A stretch of DNA of 64,000 nucleotides from an uncultured Gemmatimonadales bacterium (GCA_963795085.1 CAWCFX010000003.1:320001-384000); one strand, 5' to 3'. Positions 30,805 to 59,428 are shown, counted from the first letter of the stretch. Numbers and translations: made by a program. Notes: a model not told the origin generated them from the sequence alone.

Positions 30805-31058
30805 CCTCTGCGTAATCCGCGGTGGAGGGGTTGCTGTTGCGGGTGAGGGGGCATCGAGATCGCCCCCCCGCACGCTTCGATGCGCTTCACCGCAGAGGAC
30901 GCCGATTGAACTGAGAAATTCGCAGAAACAGCCTTTTTGGGGGGGGGGTCCTGCGAACTCCGCGCGACCTCTGCGCAATGTGCGGTGACGTGGTTGCTGT
31001 TGGGGGGGGGCGGGCGTTGACTTTGTCCTACCGCTCGCTTCGATACGCTTCACCGCAC
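30805..31058 (+). repeat. family A palindromic repeat array
   Basis: CTTCGATGCGCTTCACCGCAGAGGACGC..GAACTGAGA..CTGCGAACTCCGCGCGACCTCTGCG..GCGGTG plus linker; near-identical to 32494-32600. Confidence 0.85.
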
Positions 31059-32321
31059 CCCCGTGAGCATCCGGGCAAACCGGGCTTCCCCCCACACCAG
31101 CGCCGTCACGGCACCGGCGGCGTCGGTCTCCACCCGCACGGTCGCATAGTCCTGGGGCGAGAAGAAGGTGCTGTCGCTGGTAGGGATCAGGGCGTAGGTC
31201 CCCATCAGCCCCAGGGTCGGTGATGCAAAGGACAGCGGGACCGGCCCACCGATCTGATAGTCGCCTGAGTAGCGACGCTGGAGGTCGGCGCTGAGGGCGA
31301 TTGGAGTGACAGCAGGCATAACCGGGGGAGCCACCGCCTCGCCCCGGGCCAGGCGTACCATGTCCCGCCTGAGGAAGTCCACGGCCCCGGTCGCGAGGTT
31401 CCCGGCGAAGATGACCGTGATCCCATCGCCAGCGGTGTAGTCAGCGAAGGCCCGGTATCCGTTGGTGACACCGGCCCAGCTGAAGTCGCCATTCGCCGAG
31501 GCAAGGCGCCGCTGGGCGGATTCTCCATATCCACCGGCGACCAGCCGCCGCATGATACGGAACAAGTCCCCGGGCGTCGTATAGACCGACCCGGCGCCGA
31601 CGAGAAAGGAAAGATCCTTGGCCGGCGCCGGGACCAATCCACGCGAGCCATGGACCAGGCTGGCCGGGGCATTTCGCGGACTCCCCAGGGTCGCGTCGCG
31701 GGTCCCGGCCGCGCCCGCCGGCGCGAGCACGACGCTGTCCAGCAGCCGGGCGTAGGATGCTCTTCCCGCCAGTTCCAGCACCCGGGCCAGCACCGAATAC
31801 CCCGCAGAGCTGTATAGGCGGGTCGAGTCGGGCGAAAAGACGGGCGAGGCCAGGGCAACGAGACGGACCATGTCGCTGGCCGTGCGCCGGGTATTCTCGT
31901 CATCCGGCTGGGTCACCCGGTGGGGAATTCCGCTACGGTGCTGCATCAGCATGTCCACGGTGATCCGGCCGGCCCGGGGAAAACCTGGCAGCCAGGTGCC
32001 GATCGTGTCTGTGAGGGACAGGCGGCCGGCCTCAATCAGGCGCATGGCCAGGATCACGGTGAGAGGCTTGGTGAGTGATGCGACCGCGTAGGGGGTATCG
32101 GTGCGGTTCCCGGCCCCGAAGGCCCGGTGATAGAGGATCTCATCCCCCCGCGCGACGAGGACGGTGCCGGAGAGCTGGTTGGCCCGGACCAGGTCGGCGG
32201 CCCAGGCATCGGCCGCGCGGGCCATCTCGGCCGGCTGGCGGGGCTGCTGGCCCTCGGCGAGTGCGGCGTAGAACATGGCGAGAACGAGCGCGCGCGTTAC
32301 CCTGAGGACTGACGTCCGCAT
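31050..32321 (-). CDS. serine hydrolase (beta-lactamase-like)
   Basis: SLTK, LMQHRSG, YSS; signal peptide; stop codon lies inside a family A left arm. Confidence 0.85.
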   Translation of the reverse strand: MRTSVLRVTRALVLAMFYAALAEGQQPRQPAEMARAADAWAADLVRANQLSGTVLVARGDEILYHRAFGAGNRTDTPYAVASLTKPLTVILAMRLIEAGRLSLTDTIGTWLPGFPRAGRITVDMLMQHRSGIPHRVTQPDDENTRRTASDMVRLVALASPVFSPDSTRLYSSAGYSVLARVLELAGRASYARLLDSVVLAPAGAAGTRDATLGSPRNAPASLVHGSRGLVPAPAKDLSFLVGAGSVYTTPGDLFRIMRRLVAGGYGESAQRRLASANGDFSWAGVTNGYRAFADYTAGDGITVIFAGNLATGAVDFLRRDMVRLARGEAVAPPVMPAVTPIALSADLQRRYSGDYQIGGPVPLSFASPTLGLMGTYALIPTSDSTFFSPQDYATVRVETDAAGAVTALVWGEARFARMLTGVR

Positions 32322-32457
32322 TCCGGCCCCCTGGAGGAGATGAGTGATCGAATGCGTGGTTGGATACGTCGAGCGCCGGGAACGTTGCCGCGGGAGGGGC
32401 CGGTCTGTGAGCGATGGGAGAGCAGAGATGTGCTAACTTTTTGAAATCGTACCACGC

Positions 32458-32912
32458 CGCGGTGAGCGGGCGTTGAGATTGCCTACCCGCACACTTCGAT
32501 GCGCTTCACCGCAGAGGATGCCGATTGAACTGAGAGTTTCGGAGAAACAGCCTTGGGGATGTTGCTGCGAACTCCGCGCGACCTCTGCGCAATCTGCGGT
32601 GGAGCGGTTGCTGTGGCGGGTGTGCGGGCGTCGAGATCGCATCCCCGCAGGCTTCGATGCGCTTCACCGGTGGAGTGGTTGCTGTTGCGGGTGAGGGGGC
32701 ATCGCGTTCGCTTCCCCGCACGCCTCGATGCGTTTTAACGCAGAGGACGCGGATTGAACTGAGCGTCGCAGAGAACAACCTTTCGGGTGTTCCTGCGAAC
32801 TCCGCGCGACCTCGGGGAACTCTGCGGTGAAGTGGATGCCTTGAGTCCGATGGTATTCTGTCTCCGCGGTCTTTCGGTTGGCCCGGCCTTCTCTGCGTTA
32901 GGGCGCCTCGAA
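32458..32912 (+). repeat. family A palindromic repeat array (two filled units, one empty unit)
   Basis: Tandem linker+hairpin units starting near 32494, 32652 (empty) and 32724. Confidence 0.88.
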
Positions 32913-33033
32913 ACGCCACTTCCGATGGTCCCTCCACCCACAGTCACCGGGGCTTCCCCGAGGTTGCCCGAAACCCTGCGCAGGGCGACATTTAGCCACT
33001 TCAGTTGCACTCCCCGACATAACCGGAGCATTG

Positions 33034-35982: not shown

Positions 35983-36002
35983 AACGTCTGGCGGCGGACG
36001 GC

Positions 36003-36118
36003 GGGTCGCTCTTAGCGACCGTGCCTGCTCAGGGTGCGGGTCAGCAGCATCGCTTCCGTGCCGGTGCCGAGGCGCATCAACGCGAGGGGCGCCAGGTAAA
36101 CAAGACCTGAGAAACATT
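36003..36118 (+). repeat. hybrid family B/A repeat remnant
   Basis: GGTCGCTCTTAGCGACCGTGC (B) joined to GGGTGCGGG..GCATCGCTTCC..CGAGGCGCATCAACGC (A). Confidence 0.65.
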
Positions 36119-36461
36119 GGCGATTGGTCAATGTCCACCGCCTAGCCATACCGCCTTTCCCGCCGGGAGCCGCGACCCGGGCACACAGGACGACCCGGTC
36201 GCCACCAGGGCCATCACCAGGGGAACCAGCAGCAGCCAGCGCCCCCGGCCCCAATGCAGCCCGAAGCCACGGGCGACCGGGACACCTGGCCCGACCGCAG
36301 GTCCTCGTGCGCCTCCTCCGCCCGGTCCTACCGCCCATTCTGACCGCCCTATTTGCTCCCCCGCCCGGGAGCGAAACGTGATCCCGGTCACATCTCAGCA
36401 TGCTCCGGCTGGCCAGAAATGGTTCACGTCATCCCGCACCGCGGTAGCTCACCCTCACACG

Positions 36462-36503
36462 TGCAACCATTTAGTTGCATATATCCCGGCCCCCCGCTAT
36501 GAT
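36462..36503 (+). promoter_or_regulatory. sigma70-type promoter with palindromic operator over the -35
   Basis: TGCAAC-CATTTA-GTTGCA (36462-36479); TTGCAT-17 bp-TATGAT. Confidence 0.7.
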
Positions 36504-36559
36504 ACTCAACGGTACCGTTGCCTGACTATGCGACCCCAGGAGGCTCCTGACAGTTCGCC

Positions 36560-37255
36560 ATGCCTGACCACGCATCTCCGGATCCGCCCACCAGCCGCCC
36601 CGCGGTGGCCGCCGCCGCTCTCGCCATGACCCTCGGGATCGGGGCCGCCGCCTGGATGGTGACGCTCCGCCAGGTGCGCAGCATGGACACGGGGGACACC
36701 GCCAGCCTCGGCCCTTTCGCGTCGTTCGTCGGCGCCTGGGCCGTGATGATGGCGGCGATGATGCTCCCGGCCGCCGCCCCCGCGGTGCTCCGGCTGGCCA
36801 GGGCCCGGGGCCGGGTCCTCGTGGTGCTTCGCTTTCTCGGGTCCTACCTGGCCGTCTGGACGTTCATCGGGGTGGTGATCTTTGCGCTGTACCGCCCGCC
36901 CGAATCCACCCTGGCCGGCCTGCTGTTGATCGCGGCCGGGATCTACGAACTGACCCCCGTCAAAGGGGAGTACCGGAGGCGGTGCCGGGAGACGGTCGGG
37001 TCGGGATGGCGGTTCGGGCTCGACTGCGCCGGCTCGAGCATCGGCCTGATGCTGGTGCTGCTGGCCCTGGGCATCATGAGTCTCGCCTGGATGATCGTGG
37101 TGACCGTCCTGGTCCTGGTCCAGAAGGTCTTGCCGGCGCGGCGCGCCATCGACGTGCCGCTGGCCCTGGGCCTGGTCGCCCTGGGGCTGGTGATCCTCAT
37201 CGCCCCGTCCTCGATCGGCCTCGTCGCCTCCATGCCGGCGATGCCGCACAGGTGA
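36560..37255 (+). CDS. DUF2182 family membrane protein
   Basis: WAVMMAAMMLP, YELTPVK, GLDCAGS..LM..GIMSLAWM. Confidence 0.85.
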   Translation: MPDHASPDPPTSRPAVAAAALAMTLGIGAAAWMVTLRQVRSMDTGDTASLGPFASFVGAWAVMMAAMMLPAAAPAVLRLARARGRVLVVLRFLGSYLAVWTFIGVVIFALYRPPESTLAGLLLIAAGIYELTPVKGEYRRRCRETVGSGWRFGLDCAGSSIGLMLVLLALGIMSLAWMIVVTVLVLVQKVLPARRAIDVPLALGLVALGLVILIAPSSIGLVASMPAMPHR

Positions 37256-37301
37256 CCGGCCGGCGTCGCCGGCTGCTGCGATTACCTCAAGGAGATTGTC
37301 A

Positions 37302-38078
37302 ATGACATCGCATACGACCGGAACCCGGGAGGAATGGCGCAGCGCCCGGATCGCCCTCCTCAAGGCCGAGAAGGAGTTGACCCGCAAGGGCGACGAACTG
37401 GCCCGGCAACGGCAGGCGCTGCCCTGGGTTCGGATTGATAAGCCGTATCGCTTCGACACCGACCAGGGACCGGCCACCCTCGCCGATCTCTTCCAGGGCC
37501 GGTCCCAGCTCCTGGTGTACCATTTCATGTTCGGCCCCGATTATACGGCGGGCTGTCCGGCCTGCTCGTCCATCGCCGACGGGTTCAACGGGCCCCACGT
37601 CCACCTGGCGAATCACGACGTCATGTTCTGGGCGGTCTCCCGGGCGCCGCTCCCGAAGCTCATGGCCTACCGGAAACGGATGGGCTGGAGTTTCCCCTGG
37701 GCCTCCTCCGCGACCACGGACTTCAACCACGACTTCCAGGTCTACTTTACCGAGGAAGAGCAGCGGACGGGGGAGGTCGAGTACAACTACCGGAAGTCGG
37801 GCCACAGTTCCCGGAAGGACATCGAGGAGCAGGCCGAGCCACCCGAAGGGAAGAAGATCGCGGCGACGACCGGCACCGACTGGGCGACCTACACTCGCGA
37901 GGCACCCGGCATGAGCGCCTTCGCGCTGGAGGACGGGGTGGTCTATCACACCTATTCCGCCTTCGCACGCGGGGTGGACGGGCTCTGGGGCATGTACCAG
38001 TGGCTCGACCGGGCGCCCCAGGGGCGGAACGAGTCGGATTTCTGGATCCGCCGCCACGACGAGTACGGCCACCCATGA
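37302..38078 (+). CDS. DUF899 family thioredoxin-like protein
   Basis: RQALPWV, LFQGRSQL.VYHFMF, CPACS, MGWSFPW, LDRAPQGRNE. Confidence 0.92.
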   Translation: MTSHTTGTREEWRSARIALLKAEKELTRKGDELARQRQALPWVRIDKPYRFDTDQGPATLADLFQGRSQLLVYHFMFGPDYTAGCPACSSIADGFNGPHVHLANHDVMFWAVSRAPLPKLMAYRKRMGWSFPWASSATTDFNHDFQVYFTEEEQRTGEVEYNYRKSGHSSRKDIEEQAEPPEGKKIAATTGTDWATYTREAPGMSAFALEDGVVYHTYSAFARGVDGLWGMYQWLDRAPQGRNESDFWIRRHDEYGHP

Positions 38079-38521
38079 GTCCCGACCGGATTGAAACGAG
38101 GGTCGAGGTCCTGGCTCCACGCACCCGGGTCTGGCGCGCGGTCGCCGACGCCGGAGAGTTCGGCAACTGGTTCGGCATGAAGCTGGATGGCGACTTCAGG
38201 GTCGGCGCGACCGTGCGGGGCCGGCTCACGGTCAAGGGCTTCGAGCATGCTTCGATCGACCTGACGATCGTCGCCATCGAACCGGAACACTACTTCGCCT
38301 ACCGCTGGCATCCCTACGCGGTGGATCCCGCGGTGGACTACTCCGCGGAACCGACGACGCTGGTCGAGTTCCGGCTGGAGGAGACGGCCGGCGGGACGGC
38401 CCTGCTGATCGTCGAATCGGGTTTCGACCGGCTTCCCCCGGCGCGGCAGGCGGAGGCGTTCCGCATGAACCAGCAGGGGTGGGCCGGGCAGTCGAAGAAC
38501 CTGGTACGGTATGTCGGCTAG
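38075..38521 (+). CDS. SRPBCC/Aha1 domain protein
   Basis: APRTRVWRAV, FAYRWHP, TLVEFRL, ESGFD, GW; ATGA overlap. Confidence 0.88.
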   Translation: MSPDRIETRVEVLAPRTRVWRAVADAGEFGNWFGMKLDGDFRVGATVRGRLTVKGFEHASIDLTIVAIEPEHYFAYRWHPYAVDPAVDYSAEPTTLVEFRLEETAGGTALLIVESGFDRLPPARQAEAFRMNQQGWAGQSKNLVRYVG

Positions 38522-38876
38522 CCGGAGCGGAGCCCTGCGAAAGACCGCCGCACCGGGCGCCGTTCCCGCCGCGGCGCCGCTCTTTGCCGCGCTGGGCGAC
38601 CCGACCCGGCTCGGCCTCATCCGCCGGCTCTCCGCTGACGGCCCGCTCTCGATCACCCGGTTGAGCCAGGGCACCGGCGTCACCCGCCAGGCCATCACCC
38701 GGCACCTGCGGACCCTCGAGTCCGCCGGTTTGGTGCATGACGCGCGGCGCGGGCGGGAGCGGGTGTTCTCGCTGGATCTCAAGCGGCTGGAGCGGGCCCG
38801 GGCCTATCTCGACCAGGTCGCCCTGCAATGGCAGGCCGCCGCGATCCGGCTGAAGGCGTTCGTGGAGAAGGAGTAG
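38511..38876 (+). CDS. ArsR/SmtB family transcriptional regulator
   Basis: FAALGDPTR, TRQAITRHL..L..AGLV, GRE. Confidence 0.88.
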   Translation: MSASRSGALRKTAAPGAVPAAAPLFAALGDPTRLGLIRRLSADGPLSITRLSQGTGVTRQAITRHLRTLESAGLVHDARRGRERVFSLDLKRLERARAYLDQVALQWQAAAIRLKAFVEKE

Positions 38877-38962
38877 CTGACGGACGCCGGCCGCAGTACG
38901 ACGGTGTTGGTGGAAGACAATCATGCAATCCTTTGGAATTCATTCAACGAGGTATGGTTCCC

Positions 38963-39475: not shown

Positions 39476-39512
39476 GGGGCGCGGACGACAGCGTGATGGG
39501 GCGGTAGCTCCA

Positions 39513-40021
39513 CCTCCTGTGCAGCGGCATTACTCCCAGGCGAGTTTCGACGCGCATTACCGCAGAGGACGCGGGGTAAACGGAGAGTTTCGCAGACGGG
39601 ACATTTGTGTCTCTGCGATCTCTCGGGTGCCCCTGCGCTCTCTGCGTTAGTGCGCCTCGACGCTATCCGCCACTGTGATCTGGCTGCCCGGGACCGCAGG
39701 CAGCGGTTCAGCAGCCCGGATTGGTCGCCAAGACCGTGAAGGGCGCCCCTGCCGGAATGTTACCCCTCCTGTGCAGCAGCATCACTGCCAGGCAGGGTTC
39801 GACGCGCATTAGCGCAGAGAACGCGGGGGAAACCAGGAGGTTCGCTGAAGAAAAGATGGTGTTCTCCTCTTCTGCGATCTCTGGTTTACCCCTGCGCTCT
39901 CTGCGTTGATGCGCCTCGGCGCTATCCGCCAGTGTAATCTGGCTGCCCCGGGACCGCAGGCAGCGGTTCAGCAGCCCGGATCGGCCGCCATGACCGTGAA
40001 GGGTGCACCCACGGGAATGTT
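39513..40021 (+). repeat. diverged tandem duplication (about 250-260 bp): family A hairpin plus cupin 3' end
   Basis: 39513-39761 aligns with 39765-40021. Confidence 0.88.
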
Positions 40022-40525
40022 GAACCGCGTGACCAGGACGATGGCCGTGTCCACGCTGGTGACGATGGCCCGGTGGACCTGGTCGCCCACCTCATAGTAC
40101 GCGTTCCCGGGAACGTATACCGGGGTCTCCACGCAGCCACCCTTGCCAAGGTAGCGCTCGAGCTTGATCTCGCCCTGGAGGACGTAGATGAAACTGGGCC
40201 CGGGATGGGTATGCCACATGCCCGCGCCGGGCGGGAACAGGGACTGCTGGATGACGATGTCCTTCACTTCCTCCGACCGTATTCCGAAGCCGGGCTGCTG
40301 GACGCGAATGGGACCCATGGGGGCCCGGAAGGTGAAGGGGGTCAGGGCGAGGGTGCTGACATCGGAGGTGACCGCGGAGGACATGTGGCCGGCGCCGGCA
40401 GACATGACCGGGGACAGGTCGGCGCCGGCTCCGGCGGGCGCCACGGGCGAGTCGTCCGAGCACCCGGCAAACCCGCCGATGGCGATAATCGTAAGACAAG
40501 CAATGGTGAGCATACGGCGTGACAT
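39968..40525 (-). CDS. cupin-domain lipoprotein
   Basis: Lipobox FAGC; WHTHPG..VLQGE..E..VH cupin motif; AGGAGG RBS. Confidence 0.85.
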   Translation of the reverse strand: MSRRMLTIACLTIIAIGGFAGCSDDSPVAPAGAGADLSPVMSAGAGHMSSAVTSDVSTLALTPFTFRAPMGPIRVQQPGFGIRSEEVKDIVIQQSLFPPGAGMWHTHPGPSFIYVLQGEIKLERYLGKGGCVETPVYVPGNAYYEVGDQVHRAIVTSVDTAIVLVTRFNIPVGAPFTVMAADPGC

Positions 40526-40607
40526 GGGGACCTCCTGCAATGGGGTGAGTCAGGAAACCGCTCCTCAGTACCTGTTGCCGCCGAGGGACAGCGGCTTAGG
40601 TTTGGAC

Positions 40608-43037: not shown

Positions 43038-43225
43038 GTGCGGGCGGCAGCATCGCTTTCCTTCTGCGGTAGCCGGCTTCAGCCTTGGATCCCTGACCCC
43101 CTTTCCCCATCCCGGTCACCTTGGATCCCTGACCCCTGTCCCGCTTCCCCCGTCAGGGAAAGGGGGAACGCGATGCAGGCGCCGGCGACAACCTTGCTCG
43201 GCCTGCTCTGTCGCGAATGCGACCA
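43038..43225 (+). repeat. family A linker joined to family B modules
   Basis: GTGCGGGCGGCAGCATCGC, GGCTTCAGCC, CCTTGGATCCCTGACCCC twice, CTTCCCCCGTCAGGGAAAGGGGGAACGCGATGCAGGCGCCGGC. Confidence 0.8.
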
Positions 43226-43274
43226 GGTGCCCCTTTTTCAGACTGCCGGGATGGGCTAGACTTTCTAGGCTCCC

Positions 43275-45911: not shown

Positions 45912-46055
45912 GGTGCGGGCGTCGGGGTGCGGGCAGCGGCATCGGTTCCCTTCCTGGCCGCCCCTTCGATCGTCCGGGTGGCGACATCACTTCCCTTCCA
46001 GTTCGAGGCGGTTTACCGCAGAGAACGCCGAGTGAACTGAGAGTACCCAGAGGAA
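45912..46055 (+). repeat. family A linker plus left arm
   Basis: GGTGCGGG..GCATCGGTTCCCTTCC..TTCGAGGCGGTTTACCGCAGAGAACGCCGAGTGAACTGAGAG. Confidence 0.78.
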
Positions 46056-46602: not shown

Positions 46603-46960
46603 CGCGGGCGGTGGCATCGTTTCCCTTCCAGGTTTGAGGCCCTTTACGCCTCGAGCCCGTCCAGCGGTGTGATCTGCCGCCCCCAGGGTGCAGGGGCAGT
46701 GACATCGCTTCCCTTTCTGGTTCGAGGCGCTTTACCGCTGAGGACGCTGAGTGAACTGAGAGTTTCGCAGGGACGACATTGTATTCTTCTTCTACGATCT
46801 CTCGGTTGCCACTGCGCTCTCTGCGTTAAGGCGCCTTGAAGCCGTCCACCGGTGTGATCTGTCCGCCCCCGGGGTGCGGGGGCGGTGACATCGTTTCCCT
46901 TCCAGTATCGAGGCGCTTTACCGCCTCGATGCTGTCCACCGGGGTGATCTGTCCGCCCCA
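46603..46960 (+). repeat. family A tandem array (empty-filled-empty)
   Basis: Three units of ..CATCG.TTCCCTT..GAGGC.CTTTA(C)CGC..GTCCA.CGG.GTGATCTG..CCGCCCC; the middle unit carries a 96-bp hairpin interior. Confidence 0.88.
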
Positions 46961-47659: not shown

Positions 47660-47745
47660 TGTGCGGGCGGCAGCATGGCCTTCTTTTCGGTTCCGAGGCG
47701 CTTTACCGCAGAGGGCGCAGAGGGAACTGAGAGTTTCGCAGAGGA
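47660..47745 (+). repeat. family A linker plus left arm
   Basis: GTGCGGGCGGCAGCAT..CGAGGCGCTTTACCGCAGAGGGCGCAGAGGGAACTGAGAGTTTCGCAGA. Confidence 0.8.
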
Positions 47746-47807
47746 AGCTTGTGTTTCACCCCAGGCTCTCCTCGCCCTGACTACAGGCCCTTGCTGTATC
47801 CGCGCTC

Positions 47808-47855: not shown

Positions 47856-47861
47856 CCGGCC

Positions 47862-48892: not shown

Positions 48893-50299
48893 TCAGGGCG
48901 GGCTCAACAGGTGATTCCGCTGCGGCACCGTCAGCGTTCGGTGCATCTGCCGCACCTGGTCGGGCGTGAACTTCTGGGGTTCCGGGTTATCGCCGGTCCC
49001 GCACATGGCGTGATAGCTCATCACATTCCGGACGTCCGGATCGAAGGTAAATGACACCGGGTTCCCGCCGATCGTCCCTGACACCGTGACCTGCGACGAC
49101 GTGCACACCTCGTCCGCCCGTCCATCGCTGTTGCCATGGAGATCATAGACGAAGGTGCCCGGGTCCGGCGGCGTGTCGGGGAGACGGTCGCCGTCGAGCG
49201 CGTCAATGGTCCCGCCGTTGCTTCCGATATGGGTGATGAGCGCCAGGTCGGCGGCCGCGGCCGAGCCGGTACTGGTGCCATACATGGGGTTGATGCCGTC
49301 CCACCCGGGGAAGGTGTGGTACAGGCCCAGGTAATGGCCCAGCTCGTGGGCGACGAAGGAACCGTTGCCCAGCGTCAGGAACGAGAGCCCGGTGGTGGGA
49401 TACAGGCTGGGCAGGGCCACGTATCGCTGGTCGGCGTCAGTGACGTTGGCGGGGAGGGTACCCGCCCCCGGCGGTGGATAGGCGTTCCCATTCCCGGTCG
49501 GGTCGGCCGCGGAGCCCCAGCGCAACAGCAGGGGGATCCGGCCCGGCAGGGTCGCCGCGAAGGCGTTGCCGCCGGCAGCAATCGTGGCGTCCTGGTTCAT
49601 CCCGGTGGAGTTTATCGGCTGCCAGTCGGCGGCCGGGTCGTAGAGAAACCGGATCCCGCTCCCCCGGAACACCCGGTTCACCCGGGCCACGACATCGGTG
49701 AACTGGGCCGCCGTCACTTGCGGTGCCCGGGTCCCATCGTCGTTGCTCAGGGCGATCACCCGGAGGCGGAGGCCCACCCGCCGCACATGCAGCGTGAGCA
49801 CCGGGGTGGTCACCTTGCCGCCGTGGAAATTCTCCGCCTCGGCGAACACGTCGAGCGACAGGTCCCAGAACGCTCCGATCAGCGGCTCGACATCGAGCTC
49901 CCAGGTCACCGACTCGGTCGGGTTCGCCGGCTGGCCGACCGTGGCGCTGCTCACCCTCTCCACCTCGGGTGTGCCGGCCAGCGTCGGGCCCTGGACCGTG
50001 CCGGGCATCGAACGCCTCGTGGTCGCCCAGATCCGGATGGCGCGGATGCCCCCGTCCGGGTCATCGGCGCGCGCCGTGATGCTCACGTGATTGGTGTCCA
50101 CCATCTCTCCAGCGGCCGGCGTGCCGCCGAGCGTGACATTCACCAGCGGCTGGTTCGGAATGTTGGCCTGGAGCCAGAGCGCAGAGGGCGAGGTCGGATC
50201 CTGCGGGGGAACATTGAGCTGAGGTGCGGGGGTACATGCCGTGACGACCAGTCCGACCACGGCCAGGGTGCTCACCAGGGAGCCGGATCTCCGGGCCAC
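48893..50299 (-). CDS. metzincin (M43/pappalysin-like) metalloprotease lipoprotein
   Basis: HELGHYLGLYHTF, DTPPD, Met-turn NVMSY, FTPDQ; lipobox VTAC; AGGAGG before GTG 50299. Confidence 0.85.
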   Translation of the reverse strand: MARRSGSLVSTLAVVGLVVTACTPAPQLNVPPQDPTSPSALWLQANIPNQPLVNVTLGGTPAAGEMVDTNHVSITARADDPDGGIRAIRIWATTRRSMPGTVQGPTLAGTPEVERVSSATVGQPANPTESVTWELDVEPLIGAFWDLSLDVFAEAENFHGGKVTTPVLTLHVRRVGLRLRVIALSNDDGTRAPQVTAAQFTDVVARVNRVFRGSGIRFLYDPAADWQPINSTGMNQDATIAAGGNAFAATLPGRIPLLLRWGSAADPTGNGNAYPPPGAGTLPANVTDADQRYVALPSLYPTTGLSFLTLGNGSFVAHELGHYLGLYHTFPGWDGINPMYGTSTGSAAAADLALITHIGSNGGTIDALDGDRLPDTPPDPGTFVYDLHGNSDGRADEVCTSSQVTVSGTIGGNPVSFTFDPDVRNVMSYHAMCGTGDNPEPQKFTPDQVRQMHRTLTVPQRNHLLSPP

Positions 50300-50415
50300 A
50301 ATGACCTCCTTGCTGCAGGGGAGGAAACGGTCTGCCATGGTTGAGAAGTGTAAGTCGCGGACGGAAGATTGTTAGGGGACGAAGCCCCGAGCCAGTCCCC
50401 ATCCCGCCTTCACCC

Positions 50416-50916
50416 TCATCCCCCCCTCCTCCCCCCTCTCCCCACCCACTCTCCTTCCAGGCACCCCGGCAGTTCCGGCGCCTCGGCGCCTTCGCCCGGC
50501 GCGGGCGGGAGGCCGGGAGAGGGTTCCCAGCCGGCGATCGCCTCGTCGGGGTGACGCCGGGCCTGGTCGCGCACATAGTCGCGGACCGTGTCGAGCACGC
50601 GGGGCGAAATGGTCTGGATCGTGTAACCCGGTGCCCAGCGGAGCTGCGACTGCTGGGGCAGCTTCAGAGTTGGGCCGGCCAGGGCCGCGCTGGCGCCCTT
50701 GAGCCGCTGGAGGAGTCTGGGAATGGCCGTCATCGGGTGACCCCGAATGAGAAGGTGGACATGGGTGCTGACCATGCCGAGTTCCAGGACGGCGGCCCGC
50801 TCCTGCCGGGCGATGGAGCGAAGCAGCCGGTCCAGGAAGTCCGCGACGTCCCGGTTGATCGTGGGGCGGCGGCCCCGAGTGGTCCAGACGATGTGGTAGT
50901 AGAGCTGGTGGAACAT
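50416..50916 (-). mobile_element. tnpA: IS200/IS605-type Y1 HUH transposase, stand-alone (no tnpB)
   Basis: LYYHIVWTT, HVH (HUH), LKGAS, WAPGY, catalytic YVRDQ. Confidence 0.9.
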
Positions 50917-50976
50917 CCCCTAATCTGGGGAAGGAGGGCGTCGGGAGCGTCACCGGAAAAATGCAGGGGCTGGTCT

Positions 50977-51288
50977 CGGCCGTCCTGTTCCTGAAGGGAC
51001 GACACTTTCAGATCACAGATCAGGGTCGCTTGGCGACAGACTCCGCGACCAGAGGACAGGCTGAAGCCTGTCTTCTCGACCCCTCGGCCAACCTCGGGTC
51101 CCCAACCCCCTATCCCCCTTCCCCCGTACAGGGGAAGGGGGAACGCCATGCAGGGGCCGGAGACGCGGTCGCTTTAGCGACAGAATAACTGTCCGTGAAG
51201 GGACGACAAACTGAGATCTCACACTACGGTCGCTTTCGCGACAGACTCCGCGACAAGAGGACAGGCTGAAGCCTGTCTTCTCGGCCCG
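50977..51288 (+). repeat. family B palindrome mosaic directly upstream of tnpA
   Basis: Two GACAGGCTGAAGCCTGTC, three GGTCGC..GCGAC, two GT..(C/G)TGAAGGGAC, one CCCCTTCCCCCGTACAGGGGAAGGGG. Confidence 0.9.
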
Positions 51289-51290
51289 GC

Positions 51291-53493
51291 TCATCCGCAC
51301 GTTCCCGCCGGCCGCGGCTCATCGTCGTACGACTGGCCGATATACCCGCCCGGGGCCGGCCACAGCAGTACCGGCAGGTTCTTGAAGTACTGCTCCATCA
51401 GGTCGGCCGGGGCCAGGAAGTAGGCACCCCGGGGAGTGGACTCCACCCCCGCGTCATTCCAGTTCCATGGCGCGTCGGCGCCAGTGTCGGTGAACTGCCC
51501 AAAGCCGTCGAACATGCGCCGGTCGCGAGGACAGGTCTGGAAATCGTTCCGCCGGGCCCACAACTCCTGGATGGACACCAGGTCGTAGCCGATCACCTCC
51601 CAGTCATGTGGCACGCTCGCGTTTGCCGCCCCGGCCGGGGCGGCGACGTCTGACACCCGCTCATAGTGGTAGAGCACGCCATCGTTCCAGCCGGAGGTAT
51701 TCTCAACCTGGCCCGGTGCGCCCGGGACGGGCGGCCGCACCAGGCCGGCCCAGTCCACGCCTCGCCAGTCGGTGATCGGGTTCCGCATGAACATCGGGGC
51801 GTAGTCGTCCACCGGGGCATGCGTCCCCCGCGGCGTCCCGTACGTCCCGTGCCCTTCCGCTTCAATGTACGCGACCGGATGCAGACCCAGCTCGTCCGCC
51901 ACGAAGTCCACGTCGCCGTCAATGTCCTCGCCGGCGCCATTGGTGACCTGCTGGGACAGGGCCAGGACAGGATGAAACTCCGATCCGGCGGGAGTATCGC
52001 TGTCGGTATAGGAGTAGAAGTCGTAGTGGGCGACCGTCACCATGGCCAGGAAGCGGCCCGCTGGATAGGCAGGATCCCTGGCGACGGCCAGGAGGATCGC
52101 CTCCAGGTCATGGGGGTGGTCCGCGGCCGGCCCTCCCGTGTTGGTCCAGTCGCGCGGATGGTAGAACGCATACCCGATGAACCAGGCATTGTGGGTCTCT
52201 CTCACCCACCAGTAGACCGCCGAGCGCAGCGGGAAGCTGAAGAGGTTGTCCCAGTTGTTGCGGCCGACCCAGTCGCCGTCGTAGTCGATCCGGGTGAGGT
52301 AATCGGCCTGCGGCGTGTTCATATCTACATCCTGGGACAGCACCGGTGCCCAGTACTCGGCGAGGCGTCGGTGGGACGGCACCTGGGGCCCGGCGAGGTT
52401 CACGGTCCAGTCCTTCGCGGCATCCCGCCACATGAAGACATCGGTGCGCCCGTCGCCGTTCAGGTCACCGACGTTGATCGGACCGTCGGAGCCCCATGCC
52501 CCGCCCCTGGCCTCCATCTGGAACCCGGTTCCGGTGGAAAGGTTGATGGTCCAGTCTTGAGAACCTTCCCGCCACATGAACACGTCTGTGCGCCCGTCGC
52601 CGTTCAGGTCGCCCACATTGATCGGCCCATCGGAGCCCCAGGCACCGGTCCATCGCTGCATGTCGAAGCCGATTACCGGTGGACAGGTTGACCGTCCAGT
52701 CCTGCCCCGACGCCCGCCACATGAAGACATCGGTTCGCCCATCCCGGTTCAGGTCTCCCACCTGGATCGGGCCATCGGAGCCCCACGCACCGGTCCAGGT
52801 CTGGCTATCGAAGCCGGTCCCGGTGGAGAGGTTGACCGTCCAGTCCCGGCTGGACTCCCGCCACATGAAGACGTCGGTCCGCCCATCGCCGTTCAGGTCA
52901 CCGACGTTGATCGGGCCATCCGATCCCCAGGCGCCCTTCCACGCCTGCATCTCGAAGCCCGACCCGGTGGACAGGTTGACCATCCAGTCCCGGCTGGACT
53001 CGCGCCACATGAACACATCGGTTCGGCCATCGCCGTTGAGATCGCCCAGCCGGATCGGTCCATCCGAGCCCCAGGCACCCTGCCACGACTCCATGCGAAA
53101 GCCTGATCCGGTCGAGAGGTTGACCATCCAGTCCTTCGCCACGTCACGCCACATGAAGACATCGCTCCGCCCGTCGCCGTTCAGGTCGCCGACATTGATC
53201 GCCCCATCTGAACCCCAGGCGCCGGTCCAGCGCTGCATCGTGAAACCCGCGCCGGTGGAGAGGTTCACCGTCCAGTCCTTGCCGGCGTCACGCCACATGA
53301 AGACGTCGCTCCTGCCGTCACCGTTCAGGTCGCCGACGTTGATGGGCCCGTCCGAGCCCCAGGCCCCCTGCCAGGTCTGCATGTCGAACCCCTGGGCGGC
53401 GGCCGGCAGAATCCCCACGAACGTGGTGAGGGCAAGCAGGGCCGCCATGCCGCGGCGAAGATGGGACAGGGAGATTCGGTGGCAGTCCTTCAT
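51291..53493 (-). pseudogene. secreted FG-GAP/VCBS 7-repeat propeller fused to an NPP1/Vps62-like domain; one frameshift near 52673
   Basis: Seven about 48-aa repeats containing GDLNGDGR(S/T)D across two frames; C-terminal YWAP..YAFYHPRDW..HPHDLE. Confidence 0.78.
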
Positions 53494-53571
53494 AACCCGC
53501 CTGGAGTGGGGACCTGAGTATGGAAGCGGGAGCCGGTGGTGCGCCAGGGGCGTCCCGGGGCCCCCCATTAC

Positions 53572-53623
53572 GGTCGCTCCAGCGACAGGCTCCGCGACCA
53601 GGGGACAGGCTGAAGCCAGTCCT
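53572..53623 (+). repeat. family B module
   Basis: GGTCGCTCCAGCGACAGGCTCCGCGACCAGGGGACAGGCTGAAGCCAGTC. Confidence 0.85.
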
Positions 53624-53766
53624 CGTTTGGCTTGACAGGCCGAGGTCCGGAATCCAAATAGGACCTGGGCCGCACAACACGCCGGATCACGAGCCGCACC
53701 CCGGCCTTCCGGCTCCCGCGCGATCGCGCGCGCACACCCTCAAGGCCCGCAAGGGAAACTGACGCC

Positions 53767-54939: not shown

Positions 54940-55446
54940 ACTCCGCCCGGCTGGTGAGAGACGTCCGCGCCGAGGTTCGGGCCCGGCTCGATACCGCCCA
55001 GGCGCTGGGCCGGGCCCTCGATGTCGCGCGGAGCCGCGCCCGTCCGGGTTCGGCCCCGGTGCCGGGGCGAGGACTGCGAGACGATGTTCACGGCCCTGGT
55101 CCGGCCGGCCCTGCTGGAGCGGGAGATCCTGGTCCATCGCCTGGTCGCCCGGCGGCTGAGTTCGGCGCTGGAGAGAATGGCCACGGATTCCCTGACCGTG
55201 CACGCCTTCGAGGCTCGGTACCAGGCCGCCAACGCCGCGTTTCTCCGGGAACTGGTGGGCATTGGCCAGGAGACGTTCAAGAAGGCGATCGTCGCGACGG
55301 CGCCGCTGGCTGAGCGATACCCTGCCCTGCAGCCGCTGGTCGAGGAACTGCGCCGGAAAGCGGCGGTGCGTAGCGGCGATTCGCTGCCGGCGTCCGACCG
55401 GCCCGCCTTCCTGGTGATGGAGGATCCCGCCGGGCGGCAGCATTGA
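54936..55446 (+). pseudogene. helical coding segment split over two frames, probable C-terminus of the upstream protease
   Basis: MNSARLVRDV..DVAR switches to AAPVRVRPRCRGEDCETMF.. near 55030. Confidence 0.5.
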
Positions 55447-55489
55447 TGCTCGTGCGCGGCGGCATCGTGCCGACCTCGAAGTGCTTCCG

Positions 55490-55772
55490 CGACACGCTCC
55501 GCGACCGGAGGACACCTGACCCCCTTCCCCCTTCCCCCCTCGGAGGAAGGGGGCACCCCATGCAGGCGCCGGCCAAGTGGTCGCATTTGCGACAGACATC
55601 CCGACAAGAGGACAGGCTGAAGCCCGCCCTCGGCCATCCTGTCCCTGAAGGGACACTCCGAGATCTCAATGGATGGTCGCTTTAGCGACCGTGCGCGCCG
55701 AGAGAGCCCTGGAGGACTTCCTGCGGTCGCCGGCTTCAGCCTGTCTTCCCGGCCCCTGTCTTCCCGGCCCTC
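55490..55772 (+). repeat. family B palindrome mosaic
   Basis: Same modules as 50977-51288 in a different order. Confidence 0.88.
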
Positions 55773-55865
55773 CTCACCCACCCCGGTGTCCCACCATCCG
55801 CACCGCCCTGTTCCCAGCCACCCACCTCCACCTACCATCGGCGGGATGGCGTCATTCAATCACGG

Positions 55866-56675
55866 CTATCGTGAGGGACCCGCGACCAACACTCGCTCCT
55901 CCCCCGTCGCCACCAGCGTCACATAGAGGCCCGCCACCCCATCCACCGTCTTCGACTTCACCACGTATTTCCCGTCCGGCGACGTGACCCCGGGATCGTC
56001 AGCCTCCTCACGGGAAGCGGAACCGAGCACCTGGAGATCGGACCCGTCAGGGCTTACGCTCACCGACATAGCCGCAGCCTGCCGGCGGCGGGCCAGGTCG
56101 CGGAAGGCTTCGCCGGGATTGGCCGGAAGCATAGGTGTCCGGCTGAAGGTGATCCGCCCCGACTGGGCCCAATGGGGTCCGGCACTGCTGCTGGTGGAGT
56201 CGGTGAGGATCCGGTAGCCGCTGCCGTCCGCGGCGACCACGCCGACATAATAGACGGCTCGATTGCGTGGGTCCTGGTTGCCAAAGACGATCATCTTTCC
56301 GTCCGGAGCGAACGAAGCGTAGAAGTGATTACCGCTGCCGTTGGTGAGCTGCCGGAGGTGCCCACCGAGTCGGTCCGTCAGGTAGAGTTGGGACCCTTCC
56401 CCGCTCTCGTTCTTCCAGCCAAAGACCAGCTCCCTGCCGTCCGGCGACCATGACGGCTGCGATGCGTCCCTGCCCGCCGGCGTCAGCCGCCGGAGGTGGG
56501 TGCCGTCCCGGTCAATGGTGTAGATGGAGAAGGATCCCTGCCGATTGGACTCGAAGGCGATGGTGCGGCTGTCCGGTGCCCAGGCCGGGCTGTAGTAGGC
56601 CAGGGGTTCCTGGGCGCGGGCCGGGCTGGGAATGGCGAGGAGAAGCAGGGCGAGGTTACCAGCGGATATTTGCAT
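55866..56675 (-). CDS. secreted TolB-like PD40 repeat protein
   Basis: SPAWAPDS, QPSWSPDG, ASFAPDG, SPDG repeats; signal peptide. Confidence 0.82.
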   Translation of the reverse strand: MQISAGNLALLLLAIPSPARAQEPLAYYSPAWAPDSRTIAFESNRQGSFSIYTIDRDGTHLRRLTPAGRDASQPSWSPDGRELVFGWKNESGEGSQLYLTDRLGGHLRQLTNGSGNHFYASFAPDGKMIVFGNQDPRNRAVYYVGVVAADGSGYRILTDSTSSSAGPHWAQSGRITFSRTPMLPANPGEAFRDLARRRQAAAMSVSVSPDGSDLQVLGSASREEADDPGVTSPDGKYVVKSKTVDGVAGLYVTLVATGEERVLVAGPSR

Positions 56676-56794
56676 GGCGATCGTGGGTTCGGATGGGTAC
56701 CGGACGATAGGTCGATTGGGGCGGTTTCGCCACTCGGGTGTTCTGGCCCTGGTGCGCGGTGAAGCGACCCCGGCGCAGGCCATGAGTGACAGGC

Positions 56795-57168
56795 GTCCTG
56801 TCCCTGAAAGGGACAACGGAAACAATCACGAAAGTACGGTTGCTTCGGCGACAATGGCCGCGAGCAGGCTTCAGCCTGTATTCTCGGCCCCTCGGCCGAT
56901 CCTGGATCCCTAACCCCCTATCCCCCATCCCCCGTCGGGGGAAGGGGGCACTCCGGGCAGGCGACGGCGAAGGGGTCGCATTTGCGACAGACATCGCGAC
57001 AGGAGGACAGGCTGAAGCCTGCGACCGCAGGAAGTCCTTTAGGGCCCTTCGGCCATCCTGTCCCTGAAGGGACACCCTCCAAGACCTGAATGGAGGGTCG
57101 CTTTAGCGGCCGTGCACCCCGAAAGAGCCTCGAAGGACCTCCTGCGGTCGCCGGCTTCAGCCTGTCGT
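56795..57168 (+). repeat. family B palindrome mosaic
   Basis: GTCCCTGAA(A)GGGAC, GGCTTCAGCC, GGCTGAAGCC, GGTCGCATTTGCGAC modules; 56974-57168 closely matches 55579-55745. Confidence 0.88.
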
Positions 57169-57220
57169 CTCAAATGCCCTGGCGGAGGGGTTCCCCCGGC
57201 AGCCCGCCCTACCCCCCCCC

Positions 57221-57261
57221 TTGACTATTTGGGCAATACCTGTTCATTTACTGTTCACAAT
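57221..57261 (+). promoter_or_regulatory. putative CarH-type operator next to a TTGACT -35
   Basis: Minus-strand contiguous 11-mers ATTGTGAACAG, TAAATGAACAG, GTATTGCCCAA fit nnnnTnnACAn (third with one mismatch). Confidence 0.65.
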
Positions 57262-57305
57262 GTGCTGTCGACATCCAGTTCCCTGTCACGAGGAGATGCA
57301 CTGAC

Positions 57306-57857
57306 ATGACACGCGTTATTGCCCTGGCCGCCCTGTCCGGGCTGCTGCTGAGCGGACCGGTGGCGGCCCAGGAGACCGCCGGGCGGTTCTTCCTGGAAGG
57401 CCGCGCCGGCGCCGTCGTCCCGACCTTCGATATCGCCGATGTGGCCCGGACCGGCACCGCCCTCGGCGGCACCCTGGGCTACCGCTTCGACCGCCTGGTC
57501 CTGATGGGTGAGTTCGACTACGGCATGCACGAGGACCAGGCCACCCGATCGGTGGATATCACCACGCTCCATTTCATGGCCAAGGTGGGATACCAGCTGA
57601 CCGCGCCCGTCGATCGCGGCTGGGAGGCACTGGTGAACCTGGGCGCCGGCCTGGTGAGTTTCGACGTAGATGGCGCGGCCGGGCGCTTTACCTACCCCGC
57701 CATCAATGCGGGTGCCAAGATCGCCTACCACTTCAACCGCTCCCTGGCCGTGGTGGTGTCGCCCCAGGGCGACATCGCGTTCAGCAAGGAAGCTGAAGTC
57801 GGAACCACGAACGCCTGGGTCTGGCCGGTGACGGCCGGTCTCCGGGTCCGCTTTTAA
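57306..57857 (+). CDS. outer-membrane beta-barrel protein
   Basis: Signal peptide, amphipathic strands, C-terminal GLRVRF; AGGAG RBS. Confidence 0.82.
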   Translation: MTRVIALAALSGLLLSGPVAAQETAGRFFLEGRAGAVVPTFDIADVARTGTALGGTLGYRFDRLVLMGEFDYGMHEDQATRSVDITTLHFMAKVGYQLTAPVDRGWEALVNLGAGLVSFDVDGAAGRFTYPAINAGAKIAYHFNRSLAVVVSPQGDIAFSKEAEVGTTNAWVWPVTAGLRVRF

Positions 57858-57883
57858 CCTTCTCAGACACTGGAGCCCTGTTC

Positions 57884-58102
57884 ATGAAAAATCTCGACAT
57901 CCTCGCGATCATCCTGCTGATCGTCGGCGGACTCAACTGGGGACTGGTCGCGTTCCTCAATTTCGACCTGGTCGCCGCGATCACCGGGGCCGGAGCGTTC
58001 GGCAACAAGAACGTCCTGGGCGTGGTGGTCTATGGCCTGGTCGCCCTGGCGGCGGTGTACTCGCTGTTCAACCTGGCGAGTTTCCGGCGGAGCGCCGCCT
58101 GA
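57884..58102 (+). CDS. DUF378 family small membrane protein
   Basis: LLIVGGLNWGLV..FDLVA..VYGLV. Confidence 0.85.
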   Translation: MKNLDILAIILLIVGGLNWGLVAFLNFDLVAAITGAGAFGNKNVLGVVVYGLVALAAVYSLFNLASFRRSAA

Positions 58103-58216
58103 AGGACCCCGCGGCCCCGGGAGTGTCCCGGGGCCCGCGGCCGCGGTTCGGAGATCCGGGCCCGGCGGATTAGTTTTCACTGAGCGGTTCCACCCTTCAA
58201 AGGGCTGACGACTCCC

Positions 58217-59185
58217 GTGCCCCGACGTGCTCCCCGCAACACCACCGGCGGACTCCTGTCCATCGGCACTCTCGCCGCGAGCACCGGAATTCCCGCCGAC
58301 ACCATTCGGACCTGGGAACGCCGGTATGGCTTTCCCCGGGCGGAACGCAAGCCCTCAGGGCACCGGGTCTATTCCGTCACGACCGTTCCACGACTCCGCC
58401 GGGTTGCCCAGGCAATTGCCCAGGGTCACCGCCCGGCGCAGGTGCTGTCCGCCAGCGAGGAGGATCTCAACCAGCTGCTTGCGGCCGGGATCCTCCGGGG
58501 CATTCCGGATTTGGCTCCGGCCACCGCGGCCTCCCGCCGGCCAGACGCCGATGTCTCAGCCGAATCAACTGACCTGCTGGCCGCTGTCCGGACCTTTGAT
58601 GCGGAAAGCCTGAAACGGCGGTTTCACCAGGAATGGGCGCGACTGGGACCGCTGGAGTTCCTGGAACGCCGAGCCTCCCCATTCCTGTCCGCGTTGGGAG
58701 ACGCCTGGGCGAAAGGATCGCTGGAGATCCGGCACGAGCACTTCGGGTCGGGACTGCTGGGAGACTTCTTGCGCACCACGCGGCAGCCCCTCGAGGAACG
58801 CGCCACCGGCCCCATGGTCGCCCTCGCGACGCTCACGGGAGAGTTGCATGGACTGGGCCTGCAGATGACGGCGCTGGTCTTCTCACTCGCGGGATGGCAA
58901 ACCCTGCTGCTCGGAGTGGACACGCCCTCGGAACAGATCGTGTCGCTGGCCAAGGAGGCATCCCTTGCCGGAGTGGCTATCAGTTGCGTCCAGCCTCGCG
59001 CGAACGGCACGTCCGCTCCACTCCGCGCGCTCCGGCGCCGGCTTCCGCGGCACATTCCGCTGCTCGTTGGCGGTGCGGCGGCGCCGGTATCGAGCCAGGA
59101 GCCCGGCATCATCCTTCTTCCCGACCTCAAGGCCCTCGAGCTGTGGCTCCGGGCCGCTGACCGGGTCCGCGCCGCTCACCAGTAG
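58217..59185 (+). CDS. CarH/LitR-like MerR-family cobalamin-binding regulator
   Basis: IRTWERRYG..SGHRVY; W-x9-EH (WAKGSLEIRHEH); GELHGLG, LGVDTP, VGG. Confidence 0.87.
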   Translation: MPRRAPRNTTGGLLSIGTLAASTGIPADTIRTWERRYGFPRAERKPSGHRVYSVTTVPRLRRVAQAIAQGHRPAQVLSASEEDLNQLLAAGILRGIPDLAPATAASRRPDADVSAESTDLLAAVRTFDAESLKRRFHQEWARLGPLEFLERRASPFLSALGDAWAKGSLEIRHEHFGSGLLGDFLRTTRQPLEERATGPMVALATLTGELHGLGLQMTALVFSLAGWQTLLLGVDTPSEQIVSLAKEASLAGVAISCVQPRANGTSAPLRALRRRLPRHIPLLVGGAAAPVSSQEPGIILLPDLKALELWLRAADRVRAAHQ

Positions 59186-59249
59186 AAGGACGCCTCCCCT
59201 CAGCGCTGGCCCGCCCCGGAGGCCCTGGACCACCCCAGTGCCCGTCGCG

Positions 59250-59428
59250 TCCTGCAGGGTTTCCTGCGGTCGCAGGCTTCAGCCTGTCTACTCGGCCCTC
59301 GGCCAACCTTGGATCCCCAACCCCCCTTCCCCCGTCGGGGGAAGGGGGAACGCCATGCACGCGCCGGCGAAGCGGTCGCTTTAGCGACAGTGCACGCCGA
59401 GAGCAGGCTTTAGCCTGTCTTCTCGGCG
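59250..59428 (+). repeat. family B palindrome mosaic
   Basis: CAGGCTTCAGCCTG, CCCCTTCCCCGTCGGGGGAAGGGG, GGTCGCTTTAGCGAC, CAGGCTTTAGCCTG. Confidence 0.88.

Follow-up and report, generated by a model that had tools for sequence, protein, structure and literature searches.

An intact IS200/IS605-class transposase gene and its probable family of REP-like hairpin repeats in an uncultured Gemmatimonadales bacterium

In the genome of an uncultured Gemmatimonadales soil bacterium (3,885,868 bp in 6 contigs, 67% GC; G000 in the following), we analysed a window of 64,000 nucleotides (nt), corresponding to positions 320001-384000 of the 396-kb contig C3. Within this window, a field of intergenic hairpin repeats (window positions 30596-59588, ~30.6-59.6 kb, 0.74% of the 3,885,868 bases) surrounds tnpA, an intact gene for a Y1 transposase. 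We consider it fairly probable that the field constitutes a local pile-up of two unrelated hairpin families, A and B, around this single gene, with family B as its cognate repeat, similar to the repetitive extragenic palindromes (REPs) and bacterial interspersed mosaic elements (BIMEs) of other bacteria, and with no platform for gene capture. A pairing of tnpA with family B, resembling the "REPtron" that a REP-associated tyrosine transposase (RAYT) forms with its repeats, is supported by a cross-genus association of a double hairpin with tnpA, by covariation in the stems of this hairpin, by its higher copy number where the gene is present, and by purifying selection on the gene.

Results

The transposase gene and its protein

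The gene (50416-50916, minus strand) encodes a protein of 166 amino acids (aa) with a Y1_Tnp domain (Pfam PF01797, 5e-22, 78.7 bits at a cut-off of 23). The motifs HVH (residues 52-54) and YVRDQ (residues 114-118, i.e., Y-x3-Q) are conserved across an alignment of 20 homologues, the conserved core comprising residues 1-135. A cluster of family B (50977-51291) adjoins the 5' end of the gene, as the first-pass annotation of this DNA had described. The last ~30 codons of tnpA and the following 77 bp (50339-50520) are strongly G-rich on the minus strand and absent from the homologues; judging by this, the true C-terminus may be shorter than annotated. Directly 3' of tnpA, on the same strand, a lipoprotein gene with a HELGH motif is situated (48893-50338), which has no Pfam match and no DNA-level homologue in the four genus mates of the window genome (G201-G204).

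Concerning the class of the enzyme, the NCBIfam model of IS200 transposases (NF033573, transpos_IS200) is passed with 76.2 bits (cut-off 55), whereas the RAYT model (NF047646, REP_Tyr_transpos) is failed with 19.4 bits (cut-off 80). The best match in the PDB is the TnpA of ISDra2 (2xm3, 1e-16), the best annotated plasmid match is a Deinococcus IS200/IS605 tnpA (34.5% identity), and BLASTP detected no similarity to RayT of Escherichia coli K-12 (E=23). Placement of the protein in a tree, which the first-pass annotation had proposed, was achieved in part: in a quick and effectively unrooted tree, 44 of 47 Gemmatimonadales rows form one clade (Shimodaira-Hasegawa-like approximate likelihood ratio test, SH-aLRT, 92) that excludes five IS200 references, and the proteins of the two genus mates cluster with that of the window. 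By these comparisons of sequence, the enzyme is a member of the IS200/IS605 class and not a classical RAYT.

In a tblastn search of the window genome, tnpA finds only itself and no other close copy. Two further Y1 loci (C1:1120130-1120500 and C4:546683-547023) are frameshifted or stopped, belong to another subtype (DH[IV]H, WQ, YI.NQ..HH, i.e., Y-x3-Q-x2-HH) and have no A or B repeats nearby; the gene is thus "lone", as had been claimed, in the sense of being the only intact Y1 copy, but not the only Y1 gene. The reported lack of tnpB is confirmed: its domain (PF07282) has 0 matches in the whole genome, and the control search was positive in 8 of 14 named genomes.

The relatives studied comprise 201 genomes of the order, 86 of them in the same family as the window genome. 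The four genus mates are assembled in 120-540 contigs, are 64-94% complete and share homologous genes of 65-80% identity with the window; G151 and G169, two species of one sister genus, are better assembled. The closest homologues of tnpA are found in G203 (74% aa identity) and in G204 (59-60%). The ratio of nonsynonymous to synonymous substitution rates is 0.09-0.23 in six pairs (0.19 against G203), i.e., tnpA is under purifying selection. The gene occupies a syntenic site in G151 and G169, and the copy in G204 has different neighbours.

The double hairpin and its association with tnpA

The double hairpin of family B is composed of a variable stem of 5-7 bp with a TAAA or TGAA loop, a short linker (CTCGGC in most relatives), and a GTCGC-loop-GCGAC hairpin. 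Homologues of tnpA are found in 54 of the 201 order genomes and in 49 of the 86 genomes of the same family (a tally that includes the unpublished genome G077). Of 48 loci with a tnpA homologue, 22 have a double hairpin no more than 300 nt from the gene according to a pattern search, and in 16 of the 48, belonging to many genera and including the window, a forward double hairpin is situated 50-200 nt upstream of the tnpA start. In the window, the distance to the start is 108 nt for the nearer upstream double hairpin, which is oriented as in the relatives, and 312 nt for the second. Three copies of tnpA in G020 (82-95% aa identity) are built into exactly the same unit, which consists of a left double hairpin, tnpA, and an inverted right double hairpin.

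In an alignment of nine double hairpins from eight genomes, in which the window is represented by the copy at 59240-59440, 89.4% of the cells are paired versus 21-44% for slid controls; five of the seven pairs in the variable stem change on both sides, and the GTCGC stem is 100% paired and invariant but for one compensated pair. The exact motif CTCGGC-N4-GTCGC-N4-GCGAC occurs 29 times in G151, 20 times in G169 and 17 times in G020 (reversed control: 0 in each); hairpins outnumber tnpA genes by 10-29 to 1 in these genomes. At least three copies of this motif are present in 11 of the 201 genomes, and a tnpA homologue is found in 7 of these 11 versus 47 of the 190 others, although these counts ignore kinship and so overstate the case. 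Within one genus, double-hairpin counts are 29 and 20 in genomes with tnpA versus 4 and 4 in those without.

Repeat families of the field

On the basis of a gene map of the window built from third-position GC, 16 intergenic gaps were cut from 30596-59588. Twelve of them match 4-19 places within the field (blastn against the whole genome; counts include the self-match), and the remaining four match themselves alone. Of the roughly 13 gaps with reshuffled A and B modules that had been described, the repeat-bearing gaps are thus real (12 of 16); for family B, however, the "reshuffled" modules prove to be five co-oriented copies of one composite element, with variations (43.0-43.2 and 51.0-59.4 kb). 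The composite begins with a short CAGGC-loop-GCCTG hairpin, a C-rich stretch and a C/G-rich hairpin (CCCCCTTCCCCC..GGGGGAAGGGGG), and ends with a conserved spacer, the GTCGC-loop-GCGAC hairpin, a linker and a second hairpin, GACAGGC-loop-GCCTGTC. Family A is a long imperfect hairpin of ~120-190 nt, found at 30.8-32.9, 39.5-39.9 and 46.0-47.8 kb. The features are as follows (window positions; z, fold against shuffles):

50416-50916, minus strand: tnpA, intact gene for a 166-aa Y1 (HUH/Tyr) transposase, IS200/IS605 class by sequence (PF01797 5e-22, transpos_IS200 76.2 bits)
50977-51291, plus strand: family B cluster on the 5' side of tnpA (nhmmer 66 and 73 bits, fold)
51020-51086 and 51224-51291, plus strand: double hairpins of this cluster (nhmmer)
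51108-51141, plus strand: C/G-rich hairpin of this cluster (fold)
51168-51181, plus strand: solo GTCGC-TTTA-GCGAC hairpin of this cluster (fold)
43040-43235, plus strand: B composite copy with C/G-rich hairpin and GTCGC-GAAT-GCGAC hairpin (composite alignment, repeat families D7/D13/D16, fold); ends 40 nt ahead of a Ser/Thr kinase gene start at 43275
53567-53637, plus strand: B double hairpin in a divergent-promoter gap (nhmmer 60.5 bits)
55470-55760, plus strand: B composite copy with a long hairpin similar to a REPIN (REP doublet forming a hairpin) at 55607-55753 (nhmmer 61.6 and 20.2 bits, fold z -4.0)
56835-57180, plus strand: B composite copy (repeat families D10/D18, composite alignment, nhmmer 62.4 and 26 bits); 85-87% identical to 55470-55760, both being direct repeats that bracket a PD40 gene (55866-56825)
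59240-59440, plus strand: B composite copy, double-hairpin linker CTCGGC as in relatives (nhmmer 50.6 bits, fold z -3.9)
30869-30995, plus strand: family A long hairpin (nhmmer 112.5 bits; fold weak, z -1.0)
32488-32915, plus strand: two family A long hairpins, 32488-32609 and 32717-32915 (nhmmer 112.4 and 99.8 bits, fold), in the divergent gap ahead of a kinase gene at 33031
39540-39923, plus strand: two family A long hairpins, 39540-39664 and 39791-39923 (nhmmer 110.6 and 110.9 bits, fold z -5.6), within a ~259-bp tandem duplication (39513-40036; repeat families D3, D11, D19)
45998-46049, plus strand: family A half copy (nhmmer 36.8 bits)
46718-46843, plus strand: family A long hairpin (nhmmer 112.5 bits, fold z -4.5), flanked by two short related hairpins at ~46631-46655 and 46907-46930 (gap fold)
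47690-47753, plus strand: family A half copy (nhmmer 47.2 bits)

The ~259-bp tandem duplication also copies the 3' end of the gene at 39968-40540. When folded as single strands, six of eight units lie at z -3.9 to -5.6 against shuffles, and two fold weakly (30868-30995, z -1.0; 51018-51090, z -1.9). An Rfam scan of the whole window (E<=1) gave one chance-level match inside the B cluster (mir-128, 23 bits at a gathering score of 49), hence the repeats are not a catalogued RNA.

The genome-wide module count that the first-pass annotation had recommended yielded 21 distinct placements for each family (nhmmer; E<=1e-3 for A, E<=0.01 for the B double hairpin), eight of each within the field and all eight on the plus strand, with the limit that the profiles were built from window copies, favour their source copies and under-count diverged copies elsewhere. 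A random distribution would put ~0.15 of the 21 placements into this 0.74% of the genome, and the clumping is thus far beyond chance; in the rest of the 396-kb contig, the profile search found no A or B match. Tandem arrays of B exist elsewhere in the genome (C6:454.3-454.8 kb and C1:849.5-850.0 kb), and other repeat-bearing regions include gdh, gnd-zwf-pgl, AcrB-type and ABC transporter genes. In the window, repeat copies occupy convergent, divergent and tandem gaps beside unrelated genes.

The C/G-rich hairpin module (51100-51147, 56915-56950) is 83-96% identical in G203 and G204, whereas homologous genes are only ~65-80% identical, and a related module (..GGGGGAACGCC) is present in G151; such conservation is unusual for non-coding DNA.

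Family A occurs in three of the four genus mates and in none of 16 other relatives. None of its copies adjoins a Y1 gene, and no motif is common to them and the tnpA-flanking hairpins; the idea that its hairpins are maintained by TnpA was not borne out. Family A is a separate, genus-restricted long-hairpin element, similar to a miniature inverted-repeat transposable element (MITE) or a REPIN, with no shown link to tnpA. Its interpretation as the REPIN form of B was rejected, since it possesses neither the GTCGC hairpin nor the CTCGGC linker and is confined to this genus.

Hairpins beside kinase genes

In G151 and G169, most double hairpins are situated within ~140 kb of tnpA, in a long row of paralogous Ser/Thr kinase genes. 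In seven of eight genes tested in G151, they lie 10-118 nt upstream of the kinase start codon. Four kinase-side repeats of this genome are as diverged as the adjacent gene (0.73-0.76 versus 0.74-0.80), and in a recent kinase-plus-hairpin pair identity is 0.98 in the hairpins and 0.85 in the gene. This co-divergence indicates that kinase-side hairpins spread by duplication of a kinase-plus-hairpin unit and not by transposition. Copies away from kinase genes are more alike than their flanks (0.63-0.70 versus 0.49-0.57; the two non-kinase sites themselves have a related upstream flank in common, 0.79), which points to independent insertion. Furthermore, two genes that abut in G169 are separated in G151 by a 330-bp mosaic of about five hairpins, and G151 also contains inverted hairpin pairs ~125 bp apart. 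Statements on individual sites in G151 and G169 are based on strict matches, because a relaxed double-hairpin pattern (up to two substitutions) gave likely false matches within genes.

Kinase-proximal hairpins, tens of bases upstream of starts, are found in two genera (window 43040-43275 and 32488-33031; G151:C4 428-476 kb), and the N-termini of the kinases that they precede are alike (..LSAALSDRY.LEReLG.GGMATVYLA). These hairpins may have a leader or promoter-proximal role, or may be a legacy of duplication.

Gene content of the field

Between 29.5 and 61.2 kb, N-termini resembling signal peptides or lipoboxes are found in ~10 of 24 genes, as judged by eye and not by a predictor; the others include two Ser/Thr kinases, a BTAD regulator, DinB, and a MerR/B12 regulator. 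The earlier characterization of most genes as secreted or lipoprotein genes is therefore appropriate for these ~10 genes but not for the rest. The GC content ranges from 0.61 to 0.71 along the window with no step at the edges of the field, so that composition gives no hint of a foreign origin. A tRNA scan of the window found none, thus there is no tRNA-linked island boundary. Five direct repeats phased at 144 bp in FG-GAP repeat protein genes (52387-53392) are coding domain repeats, separate from the hairpin families.

Discussion

Family B as the cognate repeat of tnpA

Under the reading favoured here, TnpA would bind the GTCGC hairpin where it folds in the single-stranded DNA of replication forks and would cut and rejoin the DNA beside it, as IS200/IS605 TnpA and the E. 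coli TnpA-REP do, thereby seeding new B copies on one strand; tandem duplication, and duplication together with neighbouring genes, would afterwards raise the number of these copies locally. Binding, cleavage and any present-day activity of the enzyme are inferred. The second part of this scheme has a parallel in E. coli, where, according to the excerpts of Ton-Hoang et al. (PMC3333891) used here, BIMEs are proposed to arise by transposition or recombination followed by local amplification; the local arrays and the 259-bp tandem unit match this model.

Several observations weigh against the pairing, besides the neglect of kinship in the co-occurrence counts. In 26 of the 48 loci, no double hairpin is found within 300 nt by the pattern used, and in G203 and G204, which carry the closest homologues, none exists within 330 nt of tnpA. 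On the 3' side of the window gene, no family B sequence is found in the 77 bp between the stop codon and the next gene. Four genomes keep 4-6 double hairpins with no detectable tnpA, the copy number of ~21 per family is low, far below that of classical REPs, and the kinase-side repeats of G151 that are as diverged as their genes speak for duplication.

Comparison with known systems

The organization of the locus can be compared with the REPtron (RAYT or TnpA-REP together with REPs, BIMEs or REPINs, e.g., in E. coli with rayT and in Pseudomonas): a single intact Y1 gene stands beside its own hairpin repeats, the flanking repeats are inverted on the two sides (G020), the extragenic repeats form mosaics, inverted pairs ~125 bp apart (G151) and tandem local arrays, and repeats are more numerous where the gene is present, the gene being under purifying selection and syntenic in two species. 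There are also differences: The window protein fails the RAYT model and lacks BLASTP similarity to RayT of E. coli, the repeat unit is a double hairpin with a CTCGGC-type linker and, as examined by eye, with no GTAG tag, its copies number in the tens and are clumped instead of reaching hundreds, and the window gene has repeats on one side only. The earlier REP/RAYT-like reading stands for family B as an analogy of function, and is wrong as a statement of family membership.

With IS200/IS605 elements (IS200, IS608, ISDra2) and their miniatures, the locus shares the HUH and Y---Q motifs in a short, core-only protein, the best sequence and PDB matches, hairpins beside the gene (on both sides in several relatives' loci, on the 5' side only in the window), and recent copies in some relatives; moreover, the local copies share one strand without exception, which is what insertion into the lagging-strand template would produce (PMC3333891, in excerpt). 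It differs from them in that the window genome contains neither near-identical copies nor tnpB, that paralogues are mostly 35-62% identical, as opposed to 99.4% for subclass 1.1 (Table 1 of PMC6006769, also used in excerpt), that the flanking hairpins are inverted in G020, and that the proteins form a clade of their own (44 rows, SH-aLRT 92; quick tree).

Groups defined in two further studies are compared here by their published descriptions, as excerpted. Subclass 1.2 of Quentin et al. 2018 (PMC6006769), found in Cyanobacteria and Bacteroidetes, is characterized by Y-x3-Q-x2-HH, WQ, a conserved C-terminal domain, low copy number and no REP. Relatives of the window gene equally carry Y-x3-Q-x2-HH, a conserved tail (HHPxEAIxGW), low copy number and diverged paralogues, whereas WA replaces WQ, REP-like hairpins are present, the host belongs to the Gemmatimonadota, and the window protein itself has RH instead of HH. 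Class 3 of the same study comprises IS200-like proteins with REP-like companions, Y-x4-Q and an N-terminal extension, and Bertels et al. 2017 (PMC5581495) describe an IS200 Group 3 with RAYT-like traits. With both, the present system has in common the IS200-like protein, the REP-like companions and the lack of duplicates; unlike class 3, the window protein possesses no N-terminal extension and has Y-x3-Q instead of Y-x4-Q. The string "Gemmatimon" occurs 0 times in these two papers (PMC6006769 and PMC5581495, excluding supplements), and a literature search on RAYT and Gemmatimonadota gave nothing on such a system among the matches listed.

Similarity to integrons (IntI with attC cassettes) is limited to folded single-strand hairpins between genes and to some single genes bracketed by direct repeats. 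In contrast to integrons, there is no cassette polarity, both gene strands being used, no common promoter side and no recombinase of the IntI type claimed for the field, and the repeats also occur among housekeeping genes.

Alternative explanations

Elements derived from IS200/IS605 and associated with palindromes have been described before, and the locus might be nothing but an ordinary insertion sequence (IS) of the IS200 type in decay, with tnpA and its left end as a stranded remnant and family B as solo ends or miniature elements (similar to palindrome-associated transposable elements, PATEs, or to MITEs), no domestication being involved. The class of the protein, stop codons in several homologues, the presence of 2-3 copies at 82-95% aa identity in G020, G145 and G125, the duplicated unit of G020 bounded by double hairpins, and the missing right end of the window copy are all in accordance with this. 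We nevertheless regard it as unlikely: no near-identical tnpA copy exists in the window genome, within-genome pairs in relatives are mostly 35-62% identical, the gene is under purifying selection between species and keeps its site in G151 and G169, hairpins far exceed genes in G151, G169 and G020, and the double hairpins flanking tnpA in G020 are inverted as in a REPtron, whereas the ends of IS200/IS605 elements are not inverted (PMC3333891, in excerpt). That the hairpins are host elements (kinase 5' leaders, terminators or mRNA stabilisers), spread by duplication only and adjacent to tnpA by coincidence or target preference, would agree with the co-diverging double hairpins upstream of kinase genes in G151, most of whose sites are conserved in G169, and with the B and A copies ahead of the window kinases at 43275 and 33031, respectively. 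It is very doubtful in view of the double hairpin that precedes tnpA by a similar distance in 16 loci from many genera and that also bounds the tnpA unit of G020, of the non-kinase copies that are more alike than their flanks (the two non-kinase sites themselves having a related upstream flank), of the window copies beside unrelated genes in gaps of all three orientations, and of the 330-bp mosaic in G151 between genes that abut in G169. A further reading, in which an IS200-class Y1 clade of the Gemmatimonadales was domesticated independently of classical RAYTs, has in our estimate little probability. Here, the double hairpins would be systematically retained some tens of bases ahead of paralogous genes for Ser/Thr kinases (and of other sensory or envelope genes), and would serve there as leader or promoter-proximal structures and at the same time as substrates for TnpA-assisted duplication and loss of kinase-plus-hairpin units; if true, this would connect the growth of a signalling gene family with an enzyme of selfish DNA.

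The first-pass annotation had further suggested that a domesticated TnpA maintains the hairpins as an integron-like platform for gene gain and loss without IntI. Some features of the field could be read in this sense: B composites bracket the PD40 gene as direct repeats, with a third copy 2.4 kb further, all copies in the field are co-oriented, for many of the genes in between, no homologue exists at the DNA level in the four genus mates, the synteny with G202 stops at the edge of an A gap (39965), and a 5.8-kb segment specific to G151, containing two kinase genes, is bounded by hairpin pairs. However, the genes between the repeats use both strands and stand partly in stretches of several genes, gdh, gnd-zwf-pgl, AcrB and ABC transporter genes are likewise flanked by the repeats, and no field gene was found elsewhere within the same repeats. 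Synteny is lost as strongly at 13.1-33.0 kb, a stretch mostly free of repeats: in DNA searches, homologues of the window genes are scattered over different contigs in the four genus mates, in this stretch and the field alike, although the breakpoint test is weak with such fragmented assemblies and genes of 65-80% identity. In G204, 36588-38876 is inverted (in contig C59 the kinase 3' end is joined to 38876, in contig C111 the DinB gene to 36588), with breakpoints outside the A and B modules; the comparison of breakpoints in relatives thus gave one synteny end at a module gap (G202) and one inversion off the modules. The region is colinear with indels between G151 and G169, at least 8 of 13 strict double-hairpin sites being at conserved positions, i.e., old and syntenic, and the G151-specific segment is explained by tandem duplication of the kinase-plus-hairpin unit (0.98 in the hairpins, 0.85 in the gene). 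A gene-capture platform is therefore unsupported, with no sign of cassette capture in the fragmented assemblies at hand, and we consider it extremely improbable.

Significance of the locus

Nearly all work on systems of REPs and RAYTs concerns Proteobacteria, and little is documented, to our knowledge, of how an IS200-type element turns into a domesticated enzyme that has repeats of its own. If family B is the cognate repeat of tnpA, the locus and its relatives would constitute an example, new for the phylum, that stands between the two states: the protein is of the IS200 class, the layout resembles a REPtron, the repeats are few and locally amplified, and some lineages have recent copies of the gene. 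Clumps of repeats can moreover arise by co-duplication with neighbouring genes, which bears on any reading of repeat density as a sign of transposition or of a "platform".

Concerning annotation, repeats of this kind explain why contigs break, and why long structured gaps lie between genes, in assemblies of Gemmatimonadales. Contig C5 of the window genome (5,922 bp) carries family B-like repeats at both ends (4-52 and 5554-5905), where the assembly probably broke at these repeats.

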